Positions 5,006 to 45,743 of a stretch of 64,000 nt of DNA are shown here, in pieces. This DNA comes from a virus. The notes below the pieces were generated by a model. It searched no databases. It worked only from the letters and a program-made list of their open reading frames with translations, and had not been told where the DNA came from. The stretch is from the IMG/VR virus record IMGVR_UViG_3300022752_000021, one strand, 5' to 3'. Made by a program: the position numbers and the translations under genes. Position 1 is the stretch's first letter, and the number at the start of each line of letters is the position of its first letter.

Positions 5006-5570
5006 AAGCGGATTCAGCCTTCGCTTTATTGGCTTCATACCAAGCCTTGCTGGAAGTCTTCATCTTGTCCTTGTTGACTTGGTAATAATCCTTGTGATAA
5101 TCCTTCCTCTTGTCTCTATTTCTTTCATACCAAATCTTGTTCACAGCCTTCCTCTTGACCTTATTGACTTCGTAATATTTCTTGTGATAATCCTTGTTCT
5201 TGTCCTTGTTGGCTTCGCGGTAAGCCTTCCAATAAACCTTCCGTCGTTCTTTCCGTTCCTTCTCAGTCAATCCCTTCGAACTCCCATCTCCACCCATGGT
5301 CACATTGTATTCACCCAGACTACAATGTGTCCTATACAACCAAATGTAATGGTGTTCCATATAGTTCAATGTATGTTCACCATCCTCAGACTCATATAAA
5401 GTCTCTATGGTAAATGAGTCAACACCATACTTTTTTATGGCATGGTGTAATGGGTATTTTGGTTTTTTAAAGTTCTTTAGGTGTTCTTTCCAGCGTTCTT
5501 TGACAGACTTACTGGTATACCCAACATAAACTGGTTTAGAGTCCTTGCGGACAAGATAAATAGTATGCAT
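5004..5570 (-). CDS. GIY-YIG homing-endonuclease-like protein with C-terminal YYExNKxK repeats
   Basis: TIY...YVGYT..SV..RW.EH, LNYMEHHYI, YNVTMGGDG; paralog of 11770..12327. Confidence 0.85.
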   Translation of the reverse strand: MHTIYLVRKDSKPVYVGYTSKSVKERWKEHLKNFKKPKYPLHHAIKKYGVDSFTIETLYESEDGEHTLNYMEHHYIWLYRTHCSLGEYNVTMGGDGSSKGLTEKERKERRKVYWKAYREANKDKNKDYHKKYYEVNKVKRKAVNKIWYERNRDKRKDYHKDYYQVNKDKMKTSSKAWYEANKAKAESA

Positions 5571-11769: not shown

Positions 11770-12327
11770 ATGCACACTATTTATCTCGTCTGTAAGGACT
11801 CCAAGCCTGTATATGTTGGATATACCGGCAGATCCGTTCGCCACAGATGGTATGAACATATTCACGATTCCAAAAAACGCCCCAAAAATCCGCTTCATCG
11901 CGCTATAAGCAAGTATGGGGCTAAATCCTTTCATGTAGAAATCCTCTACGAGAGTGAGGATGAAAATCACACAAAAAACTTTATGGAGCATCATTTTATT
12001 TGGCTTCACAAAACACACATTAGTAATGGGGGATACAACTTAACCTTTGGGGGAGAAGGAAATCCTAGAACACGAACCGAAAAAGAAAAAAAGGATAGGG
12101 CAAAAATATGGTATGAAACTAACAAAGAGAAATGTAAAGACAGGAGAAGAGATTACAATAAAATGTGGCGGAACCTTAATAAAGACCGAAATCGAGAAAT
12201 GAAAAAGAAATATTATGAAGAGAATAAGGAAAAAGTTAGTGCTTACCATAAGGCGTATTATGAATCCCACAAAGAGCAGAAAAGAGAGTATAGTAATGCT
12301 CATTACAAAAGAAAATCTATAGAGTAA
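11770..12327 (+). CDS. GIY-YIG homing-endonuclease-like protein with C-terminal YYExNKEK repeats
   Basis: MHTIYLVCKDSKPVYVGYT, RWYEH, GYNLTFGGEG; paralog of 5004..5570. Confidence 0.85.
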   Translation: MHTIYLVCKDSKPVYVGYTGRSVRHRWYEHIHDSKKRPKNPLHRAISKYGAKSFHVEILYESEDENHTKNFMEHHFIWLHKTHISNGGYNLTFGGEGNPRTRTEKEKKDRAKIWYETNKEKCKDRRRDYNKMWRNLNKDRNREMKKKYYEENKEKVSAYHKAYYESHKEQKREYSNAHYKRKSIE

Positions 12328-12330
12328 ACA

Positions 12331-12360
12331 AAACATCGGCAATTTTGATTGCCGATGTTT
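12331..12360. terminator. Bidirectional intrinsic terminator
   Basis: AAACATCGGCAAT-TTTG-ATTGCCGATGTTT perfect inverted repeat between convergent genes. Confidence 0.8.
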
Positions 12361-12387
12361 CGTGTGGTTGGTACTACCCAGGTCAGT

Positions 12388-12504
12388 TTATTGACGGGAC
12401 CAAGGGAACTTCTTGGAAACCCAATTCCAAAGTGGGGTGCCGATTGCAGCACCAGCGACAAACATGAGAATGCTCCACCAAGTTGTCCCTAAAAAATCTG
12501 CCAT
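12388..12504 (-). CDS. Small single-pass membrane protein, 38 aa (MADFLGTTWWSILMFVAGAAIGTPLWNWVSKKFPWSRQ), not in the ORF track
   Basis: AAAGGAG SD; hydrophobic helix with Trp belt and basic C-terminus. Confidence 0.7.
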   Translation of the reverse strand: MADFLGTTWWSILMFVAGAAIGTPLWNWVSKKFPWSRQ

Positions 12505-12604
12505 TTGGTTCTCCTTTATAAAATGAAACCATGTAACTCTATATATCGACCCATTTCAAGATTTCCCAAATCGTTGCTTTGCTAAATATGACAGGAGGAT
12601 TACT

Positions 12605-12829
12605 ATGGACAGACAATATTCAGAATCATTTTCCATCCCAACGGGTGGATGGACGGGTGGGGCAAATGCGATTATGTGTACAGCAACTGCTCTAACAACA
12701 GGCATAACCGCAGATGTCAAATTGTGGAGAGATAGCGCAACCACGCGCATTGTCATGGCACCAGGAGAGATCCTACCACTCAAGGTTCGTTACATCAATC
12801 ACAACTCGACAGTAATCGGATTCAACTGA
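12605..12829 (+). CDS. Small hypothetical (probably virion) protein
   Basis: CTAAATA late-type promoter at 12582-12588 and AGGAGG SD; GEILPLKV motif. Confidence 0.6.
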   Translation: MDRQYSESFSIPTGGWTGGANAIMCTATALTTGITADVKLWRDSATTRIVMAPGEILPLKVRYINHNSTVIGFN

Positions 12830-13476
12830 TACCACTGGTTGTACAACTGAAGAGAACTAAGAAGCCCGGGGACATATTCCACGGGCTTTTTTACGAACTC
12901 CTGTAAAACTCCCGTCTCGCAAGCCACAAGAATCACAATCTGCTCGACCTTTCGACCAGTGAGTTCTTGGAACATCAAAGAGTATGCCGTGGCTTGCTGA
13001 AAGTAGTTCTTGATTCCTCCTGAATACTTCTCTCGCGTTGAACCTTTGAAGTCCACCACAGAAAGTTTACCATCGTAATCACAGATGCAGTCAACTCTGC
13101 CAGCAAGTCCTACACTCTCACTCCACATGTGTTGTTCAAGTGCATAGACATTGTCGATCTTTGTCTCGACATGGTTCTTCAGCATTTCGTAGAGTTCATT
13201 GACATCAGAATGTTCGCAAAGAACAACATCCTCATTCTTGAGAAGATGCTCCATCATTGAGTGGATGATGTTTCCGCGATCACAGACTCGCTGTGCCTCG
13301 CGAGGATTTGCCCTACGCCAAATCTCTATGCCGTCCTTACCTTCGAAGCCTGTTACCGTCGTAACAGACGGCAGATGCTTTCCTGAAGGTGTAACGTAGA
13401 CTCTCCCATGCTTGCTCTCAAGCACACGGAGTTCGGGAAGGTTTAGTTGTACAGGTTGGTAGTTGTATGTTTTCAA
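12799..13476 (-). CDS. PD-(D/E)xK exonuclease (Cas4/lambda-exonuclease-like)
   Basis: YVTPSG..LPSVTTV, RGNIIH, LAGRVDC, VVDFKGS and YFQQATAY motifs. Confidence 0.85.
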   Translation of the reverse strand: MKTYNYQPVQLNLPELRVLESKHGRVYVTPSGKHLPSVTTVTGFEGKDGIEIWRRANPREAQRVCDRGNIIHSMMEHLLKNEDVVLCEHSDVNELYEMLKNHVETKIDNVYALEQHMWSESVGLAGRVDCICDYDGKLSVVDFKGSTREKYSGGIKNYFQQATAYSLMFQELTGRKVEQIVILVACETGVLQEFVKKPVEYVPGLLSSLQLYNQWYQLNPITVEL

Positions 13477-13779
13477 TCATCTATCTATTTCACAGGGAGG
13501 AGTTGGAAAGTCCTTGCTCCTCTTTGATATATCCATGGTTTGACCAGGTGTTTTCACTCTAGTCTTCTTTTCTACATCTTTCTTCTCGGAAATAACTTCC
13601 TTGAAGTAAGCCACGGTTTCACTCACACTCATATTAGTATAACGTGCTTCTCTGATGATGTCAACATACTTCTGATTAGAAACTATTGCTTGCCACGGAA
13701 GATTCATTCTATCGGCACAGCGACGAGCAAACTGATAGTCTGACTCATGCTTCTCGGTCAATTTCTTCTTTTGTGCCAT
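13477..13779 (-). CDS. Hypothetical protein
   Basis: ORF with AAGGA upstream, contiguous with its neighbours. Confidence 0.55.
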   Translation of the reverse strand: MAQKKKLTEKHESDYQFARRCADRMNLPWQAIVSNQKYVDIIREARYTNMSVSETVAYFKEVISEKKDVEKKTRVKTPGQTMDISKRSKDFPTPPCEIDR

Positions 13780-13951
13780 TTGTAGTCTTCCTTTTCGTGG
13801 GTTTTGGGTTGAACAAAGATTCTTTTTCTTTTTCATTCAAACCAAAAAATCCAATATCAATGAGCAACTTTGCTCTTTCTTTCTTCAACTCATCGGTTGA
13901 TGAAAGGATTGTTTTCAATGATTCAATCAATGCTTTGTTGCTCTTCTTCAT
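13745..13951 (-). CDS. Small hypothetical protein
   Basis: ATG at 13951 lies just downstream of the terminator; the longer ORF-track start runs through the structured RNA region. Confidence 0.45.
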   Translation of the reverse strand: MKKSNKALIESLKTILSSTDELKKERAKLLIDIGFFGLNEKEKESLFNPKPTKRKTTNGTKEEIDREA

Positions 13952-13980
13952 ACCACTATTTATCCTTATCATGTTCTGAA

Positions 13981-14014
13981 ATAAAACAAGGGTCTGCAAT
14001 GAAGCAGACCCTTG
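13981..14014 (-). terminator. Intrinsic terminator of the candidate ncRNA
   Basis: CAAGGGTCTGC-TTCATT-GCAGACCCTTG-TTTTAT on the minus strand. Confidence 0.8.
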
Positions 14015-14130
14015 GGTAGCGAAACCCCTTGTCAGGAACGAGTAAGTTACTCTCGTCCGATGTGCGATGAACAGCGTAATGACTTGCCCTGTCATCCACG
14101 ACCGACTCGGTAAACGAACGGTTGGGGCAT
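13981..14130 (-). ncRNA. Candidate structured non-coding RNA (about 150 nt including its terminator)
   Basis: Perfect TATAAATA immediately upstream, four hairpins, a possible pseudoknot and an 11-bp terminator stem with U tract; no SD-led ORF. Confidence 0.6.
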
Positions 14131-14133
14131 TAC

Positions 14134-14141
14134 TATTTATA
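14134..14141 (-). promoter_or_regulatory. T4 late promoter TATAAATA
   Basis: Exact consensus on the minus strand. Confidence 0.75.
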
Positions 14142-14174
14142 AAAAAGAAAATCCCCGATCTCTCGGGGACTTCT
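14141..14174 (-). terminator. Intrinsic terminator after gp32
   Basis: TCCCCGA-GAGA-TCGGGGA followed by TTTTCTTTTTT on the minus strand. Confidence 0.75.
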
Positions 14175-14200
14175 CAAGACCATAACAAATAAATCAAAAC

Positions 14201-15139
14201 TCACTCATTTGCCAACTTCTTGAAGTACGACAATGCATCATCCTCATCGTCATCTTCACTTACCTTGGTCTTTGGCTTTGCTTCCCGACCAGGAGCCTTC
14301 GCTTCGGCAGTTGGGAACTTCGGGGTGAACTTCTTCTCCGAAACATCCTCTTCTTCCTCTGAAATATCCATGTCCTCTGCCTTCTGAGACTGAGAACCAT
14401 TGATGACTGATTGGAACTTCGTCTTGAGTTCCCCGTAAGCCTTGAACTGATCTGGCTTCACGAAGTCAAGCAATGAGTATTCCTTGCGCCACAGAGCCTC
14501 AAGTGCCTTGTCATCTCCGTCGAGGAGAGGTGAAGATGCAGAGAACTCCGACTTGTCGTAGTTGCGATATCCATCGACATTGCGAATCTTGATCTTGAAG
14601 TTCGCTCCCTGCCAGAAGTCGAATGGATTCACAGCATCCTCGTCCTTGTACTGAGGATTCATCTTGTCATTGATCTTGTCGAAGATCTTCTTACCATAGC
14701 GGTAGAGGAAAACCTTTCCATTGTTGGCAGGATTGACAGGATCTTCAATCACAAGGACATTGCTGATGTAGGACAACTTACGCTTGCGATCCCGTGCAAT
14801 GTTCTTGTCATCGTCATTTCCGCTGTTCCACAACTCATTGTTTGCTTCACAGACAGGACACTTCTGACCGATTGTAGTGGGGCAGTTCTCAATGTACCAA
14901 CCGCCCTTTGCTTGAAATCCGTGGCTGAAGACACGAACCCAAGGAAGATCCTCATTTGGAGGTGCGGGGAGGAAACGGATGACTGCATATCCGTTGCCAG
15001 TCTTGTCAACTTCAGGTTGCCAGAGGCGATCATCCTTATAGGAGTTTTCGCCTCCACCCTTTGTGACCTTCTCTAGTTCCTTGGCAATCTTGCCAAGGTT
15101 GTTCTTTGAACTCTTCTTGAAACTTGCGAAATCTGACAT
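14201..15139 (-). CDS. gp32: Single-stranded DNA-binding protein (T4 gp32)
   Basis: DDRLWQPEVDKTGNGYAVIRFLPAP, WYIENC.TT...CPVC, YGKKIFDKI, acidic tail; AAGGAG SD. Confidence 0.95.
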   Translation of the reverse strand: MSDFASFKKSSKNNLGKIAKELEKVTKGGGENSYKDDRLWQPEVDKTGNGYAVIRFLPAPPNEDLPWVRVFSHGFQAKGGWYIENCPTTIGQKCPVCEANNELWNSGNDDDKNIARDRKRKLSYISNVLVIEDPVNPANNGKVFLYRYGKKIFDKINDKMNPQYKDEDAVNPFDFWQGANFKIKIRNVDGYRNYDKSEFSASSPLLDGDDKALEALWRKEYSLLDFVKPDQFKAYGELKTKFQSVINGSQSQKAEDMDISEEEEDVSEKKFTPKFPTAEAKAPGREAKPKTKVSEDDDEDDALSYFKKLANE

Positions 15140-15186: not shown

Positions 15187-15214
15187 AGTATACAGCGTGT
15201 ACGGCGTATGTCAA
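15187..15214 (-). promoter_or_regulatory. Sigma70-type promoter TTGACA-N16-TATACT for gp32
   Basis: Consensus -35 and near-consensus -10. Confidence 0.6.
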
Positions 15215-15426
15215 GCGAATGGTAGCGACTTCTTGCGTGGTAATAGATTCACTTGTCGTGCTTCGTTCTCAATGTTTTCAATGATGGGACGAGACAAGTG
15301 CTTTGCCACAAGTGAAGCATCAATCGAATGCTCTTCGCAAATTTCCAAAACTGCCTCCATGTAGGAGATCTTTCTATTGGAAACCATTCGTTCTATGAGA
15401 TTTGATATTTGTGTTGGGTCAATCAT
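15211..15426 (-). CDS. gp33: Late-promoter transcription coactivator (T4 gp33)
   Basis: IERMV....SYMEAVLEICEE..ID......L...I...IENEA...NLL; adjacent to gp32. Confidence 0.85.
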   Translation of the reverse strand: MIDPTQISNLIERMVSNRKISYMEAVLEICEEHSIDASLVAKHLSRPIIENIENEARQVNLLPRKKSLPFA

Positions 15427-35841: not shown

Positions 35842-37235
35842 TAGTCGAAGTTCCAGTCATCGTATTTATCGTTTGCGGAAGGTACTCCGTTTCCCTTTCC
35901 GTTGTTCTTAACACCATCTTCACTCTTCCCAAAACCCTCGTCCCCGACGATTGGGCTGTCCACATCAAGCAACTTCATTTTAGATCTGTCAATTCCAACC
36001 ACAAACTTCTTGTTACGGGAGACATCATTGTAGCGATTCTTCAATTGCTTGACCATGACCTGACCCTGCTCCTCAAGTTCCTCCGTAGAGATCAGAGCAA
36101 ACATGAGATCGGCAGTCGCAGGAAGTCCAAATGATTCCGATGTATTCTCAAGCCCCACATCGGTATTGTTGAACCCACCTCGGTTGACCTGAGTTGCTGA
36201 GAAGATAGGAACATCGAACTCCACCGCAAGACCACGAAGTTCCTCTGCGATTGCCTTGACGAATGTGTAGGAATTCACACTTGCATTCATCTTCAGTCGA
36301 GCAGAAGCACAGATGTTCAGATAGTCGATGAAGATGATGTCTGGCTCAAAGTTCTTCTTCATCTTCAAGTCATTCAGCAATGCACGAAAATGATTCGCAT
36401 TTGCAGTTGCCGTTGGATACTCCTTGATGATGAGCCTACCCGTGTACTTCTTCCGAATCTGCTGCATCTTCTTGTTGTATAGATCGGCAGGAAGTTTCTT
36501 TAGATCCTCCATCGGAAGATCCATAAGATTGGCATCTATGCGCTCTGCAATTCGTTCTTCTGCCATCTCACAGGTGATGTAGAGGACATCAAGGTTCTGT
36601 GTCAGACAAGCCGATGCATGGTGACACATGAACAGGGACTTGCCCACGCCCGTACCAGCCATGATGATGTTGAGAGTCTTGCGAGGAACACCACCATTCG
36701 TGATGGTGTTGAACTGCTCAATGTCAAATGGAATCTTATTCTCTACTCTGTGGTAGAACTCGTATCGCTTTCCATAGTCTTCGATGTAATCGTGACCGAT
36801 GTTTGTATCGAAGGAGACTGCCAAGGCATCGGAAAGCATCTTTGGTAAAAATCCAACATCTTTGTCCTTGGACTTTCCATCAATGATATGAATCGACTCA
36901 AGGATGGCATTGTAGATTGCCTTATCCTTGCAGAACTTTTCTGTGTGGTCAACAAGCCACTCAAGATCGGGACTCTTGCTGTCATCGAACATCTTGTCGA
37001 GATTCTGAATACATTGCTTCATTACCTCTGGTTCGACATTCGTCTTGGCATCAAGAATGATTTCTAATGCCCCGCGAGTAGGCATGGAGTTGTACTTGTC
37101 GAGATAGTCAGACACCATTCTGAAGATAATCTTGGTGTCCCTATCAGCGAAATAGTCCTCCTTGAGAAAGGGGAGGACTTTTCGGAAGTACTGGTCGTTG
37201 CGTGTTAGTTCACGCAGGATGGTCAGTTCGATCAT
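35841..37235 (-). CDS. gp41: Replicative helicase (T4 gp41, DnaB-like)
   Basis: AGTGVGKS, EMAEERIAERIDAN, IDYLNIC, SESFGLPATAD and QLKNRY motifs. Confidence 0.95.
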   Translation of the reverse strand: MIELTILRELTRNDQYFRKVLPFLKEDYFADRDTKIIFRMVSDYLDKYNSMPTRGALEIILDAKTNVEPEVMKQCIQNLDKMFDDSKSPDLEWLVDHTEKFCKDKAIYNAILESIHIIDGKSKDKDVGFLPKMLSDALAVSFDTNIGHDYIEDYGKRYEFYHRVENKIPFDIEQFNTITNGGVPRKTLNIIMAGTGVGKSLFMCHHASACLTQNLDVLYITCEMAEERIAERIDANLMDLPMEDLKKLPADLYNKKMQQIRKKYTGRLIIKEYPTATANANHFRALLNDLKMKKNFEPDIIFIDYLNICASARLKMNASVNSYTFVKAIAEELRGLAVEFDVPIFSATQVNRGGFNNTDVGLENTSESFGLPATADLMFALISTEELEEQGQVMVKQLKNRYNDVSRNKKFVVGIDRSKMKLLDVDSPIVGDEGFGKSEDGVKNNGKGNGVPSANDKYDDWNFD

Positions 37236-44844: not shown

Positions 44845-45743
44845 TTGGTATCCAATACGCTCATAATAAAGTTCTTTAGGATGTTCTTCCCATCCCTGAT
44901 GTATCTCTCGGAACGGAATCCGCTAATGGGATCTACTTTCGACATACTATTTATTCGCTCTTCATCGGATAGAAGCGACAAGATATTCATGAATGATTTA
45001 TTTGCTGATTCATTGCTACTTGCATCAAACACGATGTAGGAGTCGGGATTGAATTCTTCTGCAATATCTTCTGCCCCCCAATAGACAGGCACAGCATTTA
45101 CCACAAATGCTTCGTATATCTTCTCGGTGATGTAAGACTTTCGCGAAAGATTCTCAAATGCTAAAGCAACCCCATATTCCGAAGTGAACTTCAACTTATC
45201 TTCAACTTCTCCAACATTATTGTGAACTCTGCCGCCCGACATGCAAAGCCCATGTCGAACCAAATGTTCAATCAAAGATGTTCGCAAACCATTACTTGGA
45301 TTTGAAACAACTGCCGACACCTTTGGTTTTTTTTGGCTCTTGTATCTCGCACGAAGTTCTTCAAACGACGAACAGCCATGTTTGTCCATATAGTCTTGGT
45401 GATAAAGTGCATAGAGAGGATAACGCAAAGACATGACATCAGTGGGCATGTCTTGCTCAAGATCAAATCCTATGTAAGCCTTACAACCAGGTGTTGTGGA
45501 AACAATGTCATAACTCTCACCAGTGAAACAAATAGTATTTCCCTTCACAGTCCTCATATCTGCAAAATATGGATTTCCAGCCATTGGTCTGTAGAGAGAA
45601 ATTATCAAATCAACACTAGAATCTAAACCAAGTTGTATCTCACACTTCGAATCAATCTCACGAAGAAGTTTGCTTATATAAAATCCATTTGTAGCAAAAT
45701 CTATATCAAATCCACCCCATGGATTTACATAAGCGATCTTCAT
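44841..45743 (-). CDS. GT10 (alpha-1,3-fucosyltransferase-like) glycosyltransferase
   Basis: FTGE, VVSNP and AFEN....YITEKI..AF....VPVYWG motifs. Confidence 0.85.
   Translation of the reverse strand: MKIAYVNPWGGFDIDFATNGFYISKLLREIDSKCEIQLGLDSSVDLIISLYRPMAGNPYFADMRTVKGNTICFTGESYDIVSTTPGCKAYIGFDLEQDMPTDVMSLRYPLYALYHQDYMDKHGCSSFEELRARYKSQKKPKVSAVVSNPSNGLRTSLIEHLVRHGLCMSGGRVHNNVGEVEDKLKFTSEYGVALAFENLSRKSYITEKIYEAFVVNAVPVYWGAEDIAEEFNPDSYIVFDASSNESANKSFMNILSLLSDEERINSMSKVDPISGFRSERYIRDGKNILKNFIMSVLDTK

Follow-up and report, generated by a model that had tools for sequence, protein, structure and literature searches.

A structured RNA gene of T4-like phages that resembles inverted 23S rDNA, with a possible antisense action on the host ribosome

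Gene Neighborhood and Anatomy of the RNA Gene

The window, by which we mean the whole 64,000-nt stretch of viral DNA that was analysed, is a piece of a T4-like phage with the relevant genes on the minus strand (Table 1). A gp33-like late-transcription coactivator gene is followed by the gene for the gp32 single-stranded-DNA-binding protein, whose closest named relatives in tblastn searches come from Synechococcus and Prochlorococcus phages (53-56% identity) and for which a search of viral contigs returned 503 relatives. Between gp32 and a 68-aa gene lies a phage gene for a structured, non-coding RNA that stands on its own; the RNA folds into a four-helix junction with P1 as the closing helix, and the gene is ~150 nt long as a whole, with a strongly folding core of ~115 nt. 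The 68-aa gene is not part of the RNA and marks its 3' boundary.

Table 1. Coordinates of the genes and RNA features at the gp32 locus, in window positions.
Feature	Position	Strand	Evidence or remark
gp33-like late-transcription coactivator gene	15214..15426	-	Pfam PF16805 Trans_coact, E 1.2e-19; PHROG 254
gp32 single-stranded-DNA-binding protein gene, including stop codon	14201..15139	-	tblastn; stop 14203-14201
gp32 intrinsic terminator	14142..14173 (stem 14173-14148, then T run)	-	terminator scan
Late-promoter box TATAAATA, T4-type	14134..14141	-	directly after gp32 terminator, 5 nt before P1
GUAAUGCCCC	14133-14124	-	
Predicted sRNA transcript, inferred ends	13977..14129	-	start ~5-7 nt after box, end in U tract
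P1 5' strand GCCCC	14124..14128	-	pairs with 14028-14024
Hairpin ACCGUUCG-UUUAC-CGAGUCGGU	14101..14122	-	3' half is the conserved GAGUCGGUCGU motif
Stretch homologous to antisense strand of 23S rRNA	14015..14114	-	E. coli ~1929-2018 (helix 70-72 region)
Central arm (family helix P3 and extension)	14066..14100	-	contains AUUACGCUGUUCA, antisense of 23S ~1967-1980
Hairpin CGUGGAUGAC-AGGGCAA-GUCAUUACG	14100-14075	-	
P4 hairpin GGACGAG-AGUAACUUA-CUCGUUCC	14035..14058	-	antisense counterpart of 23S helix 71
P1 3' strand GGGGU	14024..14028	-	antisense of 23S ~1938-1942 (UUCC of helix/loop 70)
GGGU/ACCC	14027-14014	-	present in window letters
Single-stranded linker UUCGCUACC	14015..14023	-	exact complement of 23S GGUAGCGAA (~1929-1937, helix/loop 70)
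sRNA intrinsic terminator	13977..14014 (11-bp stem 14014-13987, loop UUCAUU, U tract UUUUAUUU)	-	terminator scan
Next gene, 68 aa, no known family	13745..13964	-	own GATAAATA box 5 nt before ATG

The 159-nt RNA folds at -59.3 kcal/mol, compared with a mean of -41.1 (sd 4.1) for 200 dinucleotide shuffles, none of which folded as well (0/200; z = -4.46), and covariance model R1 scores 85.4 bits on the window (E 1.8e-20, over 14133-13984). The hairpin that follows the 5' strand of P1 is kept in the relatives L022 and L016 with U.G to C-G changes, and its GAGUCGGUCGU motif exactly matches the antisense sequence of a Planctomycetota-type 23S helix-72 region. The central arm is degenerate in the window, where 3/5 of the P3 pairs are left and CGUGGAUGAC/GUCAUUACG forms instead.

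All of the minus-strand features listed in the preliminary description of this DNA (gp32 terminator, box, hairpins, and 11-bp terminator with U tract) are present, and the region is indeed richer in GC than other intergenic DNA (0.47-0.52, versus 0.32-0.41 in the flanking intergenic DNA), but several of its readings apply to the window more than to the family. A perfect late promoter was claimed, and the window does have the makings of a T4-type late unit, with a TATAAATA box (3 in 64 kb, where shuffles give 1.3) and the gp33 gene next door, but most relatives carry TATACATA. Insulation by terminators describes the window, which has both of them, but the upstream gp32 terminator, 95% identical between the window and L016, is absent from most other relatives. 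A GGGU/ACCC hairpin can be read in the window letters but is not kept in relatives, and a pseudoknot suggested between UGCCC near the 5' end and GGGCA in a loop gives way to P1, since the 5' GCCCC is used there and covaries with GGGGU (14028-24), while the loop is not conserved. Leaderless late genes were considered as a rationale and set aside: NTAAATA sites with an ATG no more than 8 nt away that opens at least 50 aa made up 3 of 28, which is too weak against the ~1.3 expected by chance.

Conservation, Covariation, and Absence of Coding

Relatives were gathered from the DNA after the gp32 stop codon in viral contigs, then with nhmmer, a motif scan and a covariance model, and the element was found to be kept in 28 distinct sequences from uncultured viral contigs, including every close relative. 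In the main group the element directly follows gp32, with a TATACATA box and without an intervening terminator, while the window forms a small group with L022 and L016. A further group, designated B, has a T/CATAAATA box and a gp32 that is only 59% identical and lies ~5 kb away; since the PD-(D/E)XK exonuclease cluster that follows the element in the window also follows it in this group, the linkage to gp32 is secondary. The window copy is somewhat divergent, scoring ~85 bits with R1 where most other members score 106-160. No copy was found by nhmmer or R1 within 3 kb of gp32 at marine cyanophage-type loci (L030-L080), and no DNA similarity of the window region to cultured phages was found.

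A box of the form [TCG]ATA[ACG]ATA lies 4-5 nt upstream of P1 in 27/28 members, and each member has its own terminator. T4-type initiation from a late box starts a few nucleotides downstream, which with this spacing would place the 5' end of the RNA at the first base pair of the fold.

RNAalifold, run on a plain MAFFT alignment, recovered the closing helix P1, the central helix P3 and the terminator. A hand-written five-part model (P1, P2, P3 with its extension, P4, and terminator) was then scored on two alignments. On the MAFFT alignment 80.8% of cells were paired, compared with 72.8% in shuffles and 38-57% when partners were slid, and the covariation score of 0.268 versus 0.140 was exceeded in 0/500 shuffles. 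On the alignment fitted to the model, which leans toward the structure but in which slid controls nonetheless stay at 40-52%, 88.6% of cells were paired versus 75.5% in shuffles, and the covariation score of 0.388 versus 0.146 was again exceeded in 0/500.

Compensatory changes were found in four helices of the family. P1 is 98-99% paired throughout, with two pairs changed on both sides (variants GUUC/GAAC and GUCC/GGAU, and GCCC(C)/(G)GGGU in the window), and P3 switches from A-U to G-C repeatedly among close relatives, one of its pairs being A-U in 13 members, G-C in 9 and G-U in 4, and another A-U in 23, G-C in 4 and C-G in 1. Pairing in P4 is kept despite changes of the stem (GGGAUUU/AAAUCCC, GGAU/AUCC, GGGGAG/CUCaCCCC), and the terminator is 100% paired, with both sides changed in 10/10 modelled pairs. 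The linker UUCGCUACC, by contrast with the whole RNA, is predicted to be largely open (mean unpaired probability of 0.65 versus 0.35 across the 28 members), and it is nearly invariant in the family.

No conserved open reading frame was found: 6/26 relatives have stops in all three frames, and close relatives differ by indels of 1 and 2 nt. Two starts in the window were considered as candidates for a small protein, one being an ATG at 14095, in a frame that crosses the element and continues into the next gene, the other an ATG at 14130, which opens 12 codons; this reading was rejected on account of those indels and stops, in keeping with the preliminary description, which had seen no SD-led ORF here.

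Known families do not account for the element. At the Rfam 15 gathering thresholds there were no matches in the whole window, an E-value scan of 13800-14300 gave chance-level matches only (the best on the element was Guanidine-III, with 13.8 bits against a threshold of 36), and ARAGORN found no tRNA or tmRNA gene in the window. The candidate novel phage ncRNA of the preliminary description is thus supported by its presence in 28 viral contigs, by conserved structure with covariation above all 500 shuffles, by the lack of a kept ORF, and by the lack of an Rfam, tRNA or tmRNA match; the statement that it bears no known RNA signature holds for the Rfam and ARAGORN searches, but the RNA does resemble an inverted piece of 23S rRNA.

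Origin From Inverted 23S rDNA and the Donor Lineage

This resemblance was seen in a scan of metagenomes for the degenerate core motif, in which the matches were mostly 23S rRNA genes, on the antisense strand. A typical member of the family matches nt 1928-2012 of the annotated E. coli 23S gene (rrl), with the match on the + strand and rrl on the - strand, and in the Phycisphaerales genome G002 the LSU gene identified by Rfam is on the + strand and the element match on the - strand. On the antisense strand of 23S, model R1 scored 50-57 bits for planctomycetes and 36 bits for E. coli. In the window the match to Phycisphaerales 23S has 71% identity over 107 nt (E 3e-8), and of the 102 aligned columns 73 could form Watson-Crick and 6 could form G.U pairs with 23S, the uninterrupted runs being 22, 20 and 14 nt long. 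The element is not a 23S rRNA gene as such, as only ~100 nt are homologous (14114-14015) and these are on the opposite strand; no other rRNA-like pieces were found in the window.

Judging from this homology, the RNA body descends from ~100-110 nt of a bacterial 23S gene in inverted orientation (~1929-2018/2040, helices 70-72), and after the capture mutations created new internal helices, P1, P2 and P3. P4 mirrors helix 71. Point changes together with a short insertion produced P1 and P3 as new helices. The homology runs 5' to ~nt 2040 in some relatives, so that the 5' strands of P1 and P2 too derive from the same rDNA fragment. The promoter box and the T tract indicate that the transcribed strand is the one antisense to rRNA; counts of G.U versus A.C point to this strand in P1 (12 vs 2) and in the terminator (19 vs 8) but not overall (72 vs 59). 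As an inverted and remodelled copy of 23S, the transcript could base-pair with the 23S rRNA of the host.

The segment GAGUCGGUCGUGG-GACAGUGC is variable and lineage-specific. An exact 26-mer of this variable part, in its rRNA version, occurred in 99 species-representative genome contigs, almost all of them Planctomycetota and mostly Phycisphaerales; a record that bears the name 'Cyanobacteria bacterium' appears to be misnamed, since its phylum sample was identical to that of a Phycisphaerales genome. Lake and ocean metagenomes contain 23S genes with the variable segment, and over ~2.5 kb these share 85-90% identity with planctomycete 23S. The phage core is 79-82% identical to Phycisphaerales 23S, and in a comparison that covered Planctomycetota, the phylum of genome G003 and E. 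coli, the best match was 79%/73 bits in 81 Planctomycetota genomes and 75%/51 bits in 31 genomes of the phylum of G003 (excepting one low-coverage, foreign-looking contig), and a typical member had 71-72% identity to E. coli 23S. The lineage-specific segment and these identities suggest that the fragment was taken from a planctomycete-like rRNA gene, which makes Planctomycetota the best guess for the host. It seems that the host of this phage is probably a planctomycete, against which stands the observation that the nearest named gp32 relatives are from cyanophages.

A Wider Set of Phage Elements

The 16-mer AAGGAAYTTCGCTACC, which is antisense to a universally conserved part of 23S (~1929-1944), was found in at least 115 stretches when viral contigs were scanned for it. 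Among the matches listed there were 93 new loci, comprising one true 23S gene, ~40 short elements, and for the rest chance matches inside genes. The short elements share a common build, in which a TATAAATA, CATAAATA or TATACATA-type box lies upstream, the 5' strand closes a stem with anti-helix-69 bases, one or two hairpins follow, and then come the invariant AAGGAAYUUCGCUACCUUUCGAYCGUCA and a terminator. In minimum free energy folds of 23 representatives the block is mostly a hairpin, with the stem AAGG/CCUU and a 10-nt loop AAYUUCGCUA that is the exact complement of the helix-70 loop. These elements are often found among tRNA arrays and permuted-tmRNA genes, and R1 detects several of them weakly, at up to 30 bits. 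Rfam, run on 12 loci of the wider set, gave only tRNA and tmRNA_permuted matches, away from the elements, and a search of ~50,000 cultured phage records with a wider-set member and the 33-mer block matched only contaminating 23S records. The abundant non-coding RNA of phage ICP1 (Barth et al., PMC7567579) did not prove to open with such a module: the 16-mer had 0 matches there with up to 2 mismatches allowed, and the best E in a BLAST with 161 nt of E. coli 23S antisense was 0.115. At three of the listed loci AGGUGAUCC, which is complementary to the 3' end of 16S rRNA, lies ~115 nt upstream.

The wider set and the window family are alike in having a late-type box, a closing stem derived from rRNA, a terminator, and a body antisense to 23S with Planctomycetota-type variable bases, in which AAGGAAYUUCGCUACC is kept and exposed (in the window, in part). 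On the helix-72 side the window family reaches further (to ~nt 2018-2040), the anti-helix-69 part of the wider set is missing from it, and the window element lies beside gp32, whereas those of the wider set are often in tRNA arrays. If a phage anti-23S small RNA class is provisionally defined, the window has the short non-coding gene antisense to the 23S helix 69-72 region, the late-type box before the first helix, and the intrinsic terminator after the rRNA-like block, but not the exposed AAGGAAYUUCGCUACC hairpin loop or the anti-helix-69 UUUCGAYCGUCA. Its block AAGGGGUUUCGCUACC has the first half bound up in P1 and is not followed by an anti-helix-69 stretch, which leaves UUCGCUACC as the sole exposed part and makes the window element a distinct sub-type; because P1 is closed by the anti-helix-70 bases themselves, the window family exposes a 9-nt linker and not a 10-nt hairpin loop. 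As far as can be told, the window family is thus the long sub-type of a much larger class that is undescribed in the literature, where no description of a phage RNA antisense to 23S rRNA was found (most subscription journals were outside the scope of the search).

Proposed Action on the Ribosome and Alternative Explanations

The reading that we prefer, to which we assign a probability of roughly 0.5, is that this late phage sRNA would act in trans as an antisense RNA on host 23S rRNA, with its seed at helix/loop 70 of the free 50S subunit. The linker UUCGCUACC, which belongs to the 16-mer common to the wider set of phage elements, would as the complement of GGUAGCGAA be the seed that pairs on the interface face of the 50S, either in free subunits or in intermediates late in assembly, where helix/loop 70 would be exposed as it would not be in 70S ribosomes. 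From the seed, pairing could extend into the complementary runs of 14-22 nt, and the outcome, late in infection, might be that subunit joining or 50S maturation is hindered or that a substrate for RNase III is created.

Several precedents make this target plausible and favor seed pairing with free 50S or late intermediates. The toxins MazF-mt6 and MazF-mt3 cut UU^CCU in single-stranded helix/loop 70 of 50S but not 70S particles, and this cleavage blocks translation (PMC5408214). A PNA antisense to helix 69, the neighbor of helix 70, inhibits growth of E. coli (PMC7038079), and in H. pylori an antisense RNA pairs with the 23S-5S rRNA precursor in a duplex that is cut by RNase III (PMC6582327).

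Other observations weigh against pairing with rRNA. The RNA is tightly folded, and most of the complementary stretches are therefore locked in its own helices; in the window family the 5' half of the anti-helix-70 block is in P1, and ~9-10 nt are left free. Compared with planctomycete 23S antisense, 28 transitions preserve pairing as wobbles and 20 break it, and there are 52 transversions, so that selection for complementarity outside the invariant blocks is unsupported, wobble-preserving changes being in no clear excess. The structure of the RNA itself, or a protein that partners it, could account for the conservation just as well, and an RNA directed at nascent rRNA would hardly be expected so late in infection.

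The main rival, which we consider rather unlikely, is a structured RNA of the same inverted-rDNA origin that works without pairing to rRNA, as a protein-binding or decoy RNA or as a 3' UTR module of gp32. The clear structural selection on the phage-specific helices P1-P3, the burial of most complementary bases, and the substitution counts given above are all what such an RNA would show. Since gp32 and the element are not separated by a terminator in most relatives, where the box is no more than the imperfect TATACATA, the RNA would in those phages be the 3' UTR of gp32, where it would stabilise or insulate a very abundant mRNA; against this, the phages with a 59% identical gp32 have the element ~5 kb away with a T/CATAAATA box of its own, indicating that the link to gp32 is not essential. 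Against any version without pairing, the sole part that is invariant across very different phages is the exact complement of the universally conserved helix 69-70 stretch, it is presented unpaired as a loop or linker, and the elements sit in clusters of translation-related RNA genes.

Two further explanations fit the data poorly. That the locus is an inert relic of rDNA, left by illegitimate recombination or a homing-endonuclease event, or a DNA-level target of recombination or of an endonuclease that imitates intron sites in rDNA, seems improbable to us. A GIY-YIG/NUMOD3 homing endonuclease gene is inserted directly beside the element in L016, and 23S positions ~1917-1951 are frequent sites of introns and homing, both of which would suit such an origin, but 75-80% identity is unexpected for non-coding DNA between phages whose gp32 is 59% identical, the compensatory changes include bases outside the rRNA-like part, and box and T-tract terminator are oriented alike in every member, as they are in the wider set. 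Less probable still is a cis-acting leader, a riboswitch or attenuator that controls read-through of the terminator into downstream genes. A multi-helix junction followed by an intrinsic terminator and then a gene resembles the layout of transcription-attenuating riboswitches, but the gene 3' of the element differs between relatives and is in one case in the opposite direction, the downstream genes have their own NATAAATA box just before the ATG, the terminators differ freely in sequence and share no alternative pairing with the core, and no riboswitch family matches.

Implications for Phage Biology

Taking antisense action on 23S rRNA together with the origin and host, a tentative picture emerges, which we regard as somewhat short of an even chance as a whole, of an undescribed class of late phage sRNAs that arose from inverted host 23S rDNA and may grip the helix 69-71 interface region of the free 50S subunit, thereby controlling how subunits join or ribosomes mature, and whose bases may point to Planctomycetota as the hosts of this whole clade of 'cyanophage-like' T4-type lake phages. 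Should pairing with 23S rRNA occur, a virus would be acting on ribosomal RNA directly by means of RNA; to our knowledge, phage take-over strategies use proteins, tRNAs, tmRNA and mRNA-targeting sRNAs, and direct action of RNA on rRNA is not among them. The presumed target, helix 69-71, is the universally conserved, bridge-forming face of the 50S subunit and has already been pursued with antisense oligomers, so that nature may have optimised a scaffold for reaching it. Because these RNAs are short, with a predicted seed of 9-16 nt, the class should be readily testable.

The element is also an example of a functional RNA gene apparently born from an inverted scrap of host rDNA, and its lineage-specific bases offer a rare clue to the host (Planctomycetota/Phycisphaerales) of abundant uncultured freshwater T4-like phages. 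We know of almost no cultured phages of Planctomycetota.

Comparison With Known Systems

Among the closest known systems is the bacterial large-subunit rRNA itself (Rfam LSU_rRNA_bacteria, RF02541), to which the window RNA is homologous over ~100 nt of domain IV/V, differing in that it is the opposite strand, spans 3-4% of the gene length, has remodelled helices, and has a promoter and terminator of its own. The box C/D and H/ACA guides found in archaea and eukaryotes resemble it as small RNAs with 10-20 nt of complementarity to conserved rRNA segments; unlike in these, no C/D or H/ACA motifs were noticed in the window RNA, and partner proteins of the C/D and H/ACA type are not known from bacteria and were not noticed in the window.

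In its architecture the RNA resembles CopA/CopT (plasmid R1), RNA I/RNA II (ColE1) and the phage sRNAs, which are likewise small and highly structured, with their own promoter and terminator. CopA/CopT, RNA I/RNA II and trans-acting sRNAs in general expose a short, perfectly complementary seed. The targets of CopA/CopT and RNA I/RNA II are an mRNA or a primer, whereas the presumed target of the window RNA is rRNA, and unlike CopA or RNA I the window RNA would have arisen from an inverted copy of its target gene that is carried on another genome.

The MazF-mt6 and MazF-mt3 toxins and the helix-69 PNA act on the same stretch of 23S as the one presumed for the window RNA; the former are protein nucleases and the latter a synthetic oligomer, neither being a natural RNA, and they bear on plausibility only. 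The antisense RNA of H. pylori is natural and pairs with a large-subunit rRNA precursor, much as is proposed here, but it is encoded by the host, in cis, and overlaps the leader of the precursor (PMC6582327), whereas the window RNA is encoded by a phage and is predicted to act in trans, on conserved helices of the mature rRNA.

Short anti-23S genes in other viral contigs

Short genes with a common layout, consisting of a late-type box, a closing stem, an invariant block and a terminator, were found in about 40 unrelated viral contigs among the matches listed. The block, AAGGAAYUUCGCUACCUUUCGAYCGUCA, is antisense to 23S rRNA helix 69-70, and when folded it is predicted to present a 10-nt loop that is the complement of the helix-70 loop. 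Searches of cultured phage records with one member and the 33-mer block returned no occurrence of these genes.

The second of the long sub-types spans about 160 nt; it has terminators flanking both ends and a closing stem that pairs the anti-helix-69 bases with a phage-specific 5' strand. The two representatives for which coordinates are tabulated differ from one another in this stem by compensatory changes. Proteins encoded next to this sub-type had no match to a known family.

Upstream of the anti-23S block in three loci (L389, L420 and L382) we observed AGGAGGUGAUCC or AGGUGAUCC. These stretches are the complement of the 16S rRNA 3' end and precede the 16-mer antisense to 23S positions ~1929-1944 by about 115 nt. 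The RNAs of these loci could be complementary to the rRNAs of both subunits.

Genomic neighborhoods and proposed host

Some members of the wider set lie within or adjoin long tRNA arrays and tmRNA_permuted genes, the latter scoring 54-78 bits against Rfam. A permuted tmRNA is unexpected for a planctomycete host. Planctomycete-type 23S sequence was present in two records named as cyanobacteria. The phylum sample drawn for one of these, genome G001, coincided with that of a Phycisphaerales genome, and this record is therefore probably misnamed; the other, contig C62 of genome G003, is probably contamination, since it is short and of low coverage.

Other features of the window

NATAAATA boxes lie 2-5 nt 5' of an ATG at several window sites, a placement that would leave some late mRNAs with almost no leader. 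The pattern is weak, because only 3 of 28 such sites open a reading frame of 50 aa or more, against ~1.3 expected by chance. A separate stretch of about 470 nt is without a convincing ORF and has raised G+C (0.45-0.51).

In the relative L016, the gp32 terminator and the sRNA element are separated by an inserted homing endonuclease gene. The window keeps a gp32 terminator 95% identical to that of L016 but lacks the endonuclease gene, which suggests that the endonuclease was gained or lost at this junction.

Locations of the features described
Feature	Location	Strand	Remarks
Wider-set short genes	L364, L401, L413, L430, L368, L376, L383, L388		box, stem, block, terminator
Wider-set short genes, further loci	L443, L415, L445, L455, L375, L365, L414, L394		box, stem, block, terminator
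Second long sub-type	L130:1336-1507	-	
Second long sub-type	L137:1370-1493	+	
Second long sub-type, further loci	L366, L369, L392, L403		
tRNA array / tmRNA_permuted neighborhood	L364:3042-4613		
tRNA array / tmRNA_permuted neighborhood	L455:807-4084		
tRNA array / tmRNA_permuted neighborhood	L394:6142-8763		
tRNA array / tmRNA_permuted neighborhood	L376:5318-7853		
Cyanobacteria-named record	RHKP01000011.1		L271, G001
Cyanobacteria-named record	PYER01000458.1		L267, contig C62 of G003
NATAAATA box before ATG	window 13957-13964, 5555-5562, 44948-44955, 35863-35870, and others		
Stretch without convincing ORF	window 12328-12798		
185-aa ORF, one flank of stretch	window 11770-12327	+	no Pfam match
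PD-(D/E)XK exonuclease gene, other flank	window 12799-13476	-	
GIY-YIG + NUMOD3 homing endonuclease gene	L016:3946-4509	-
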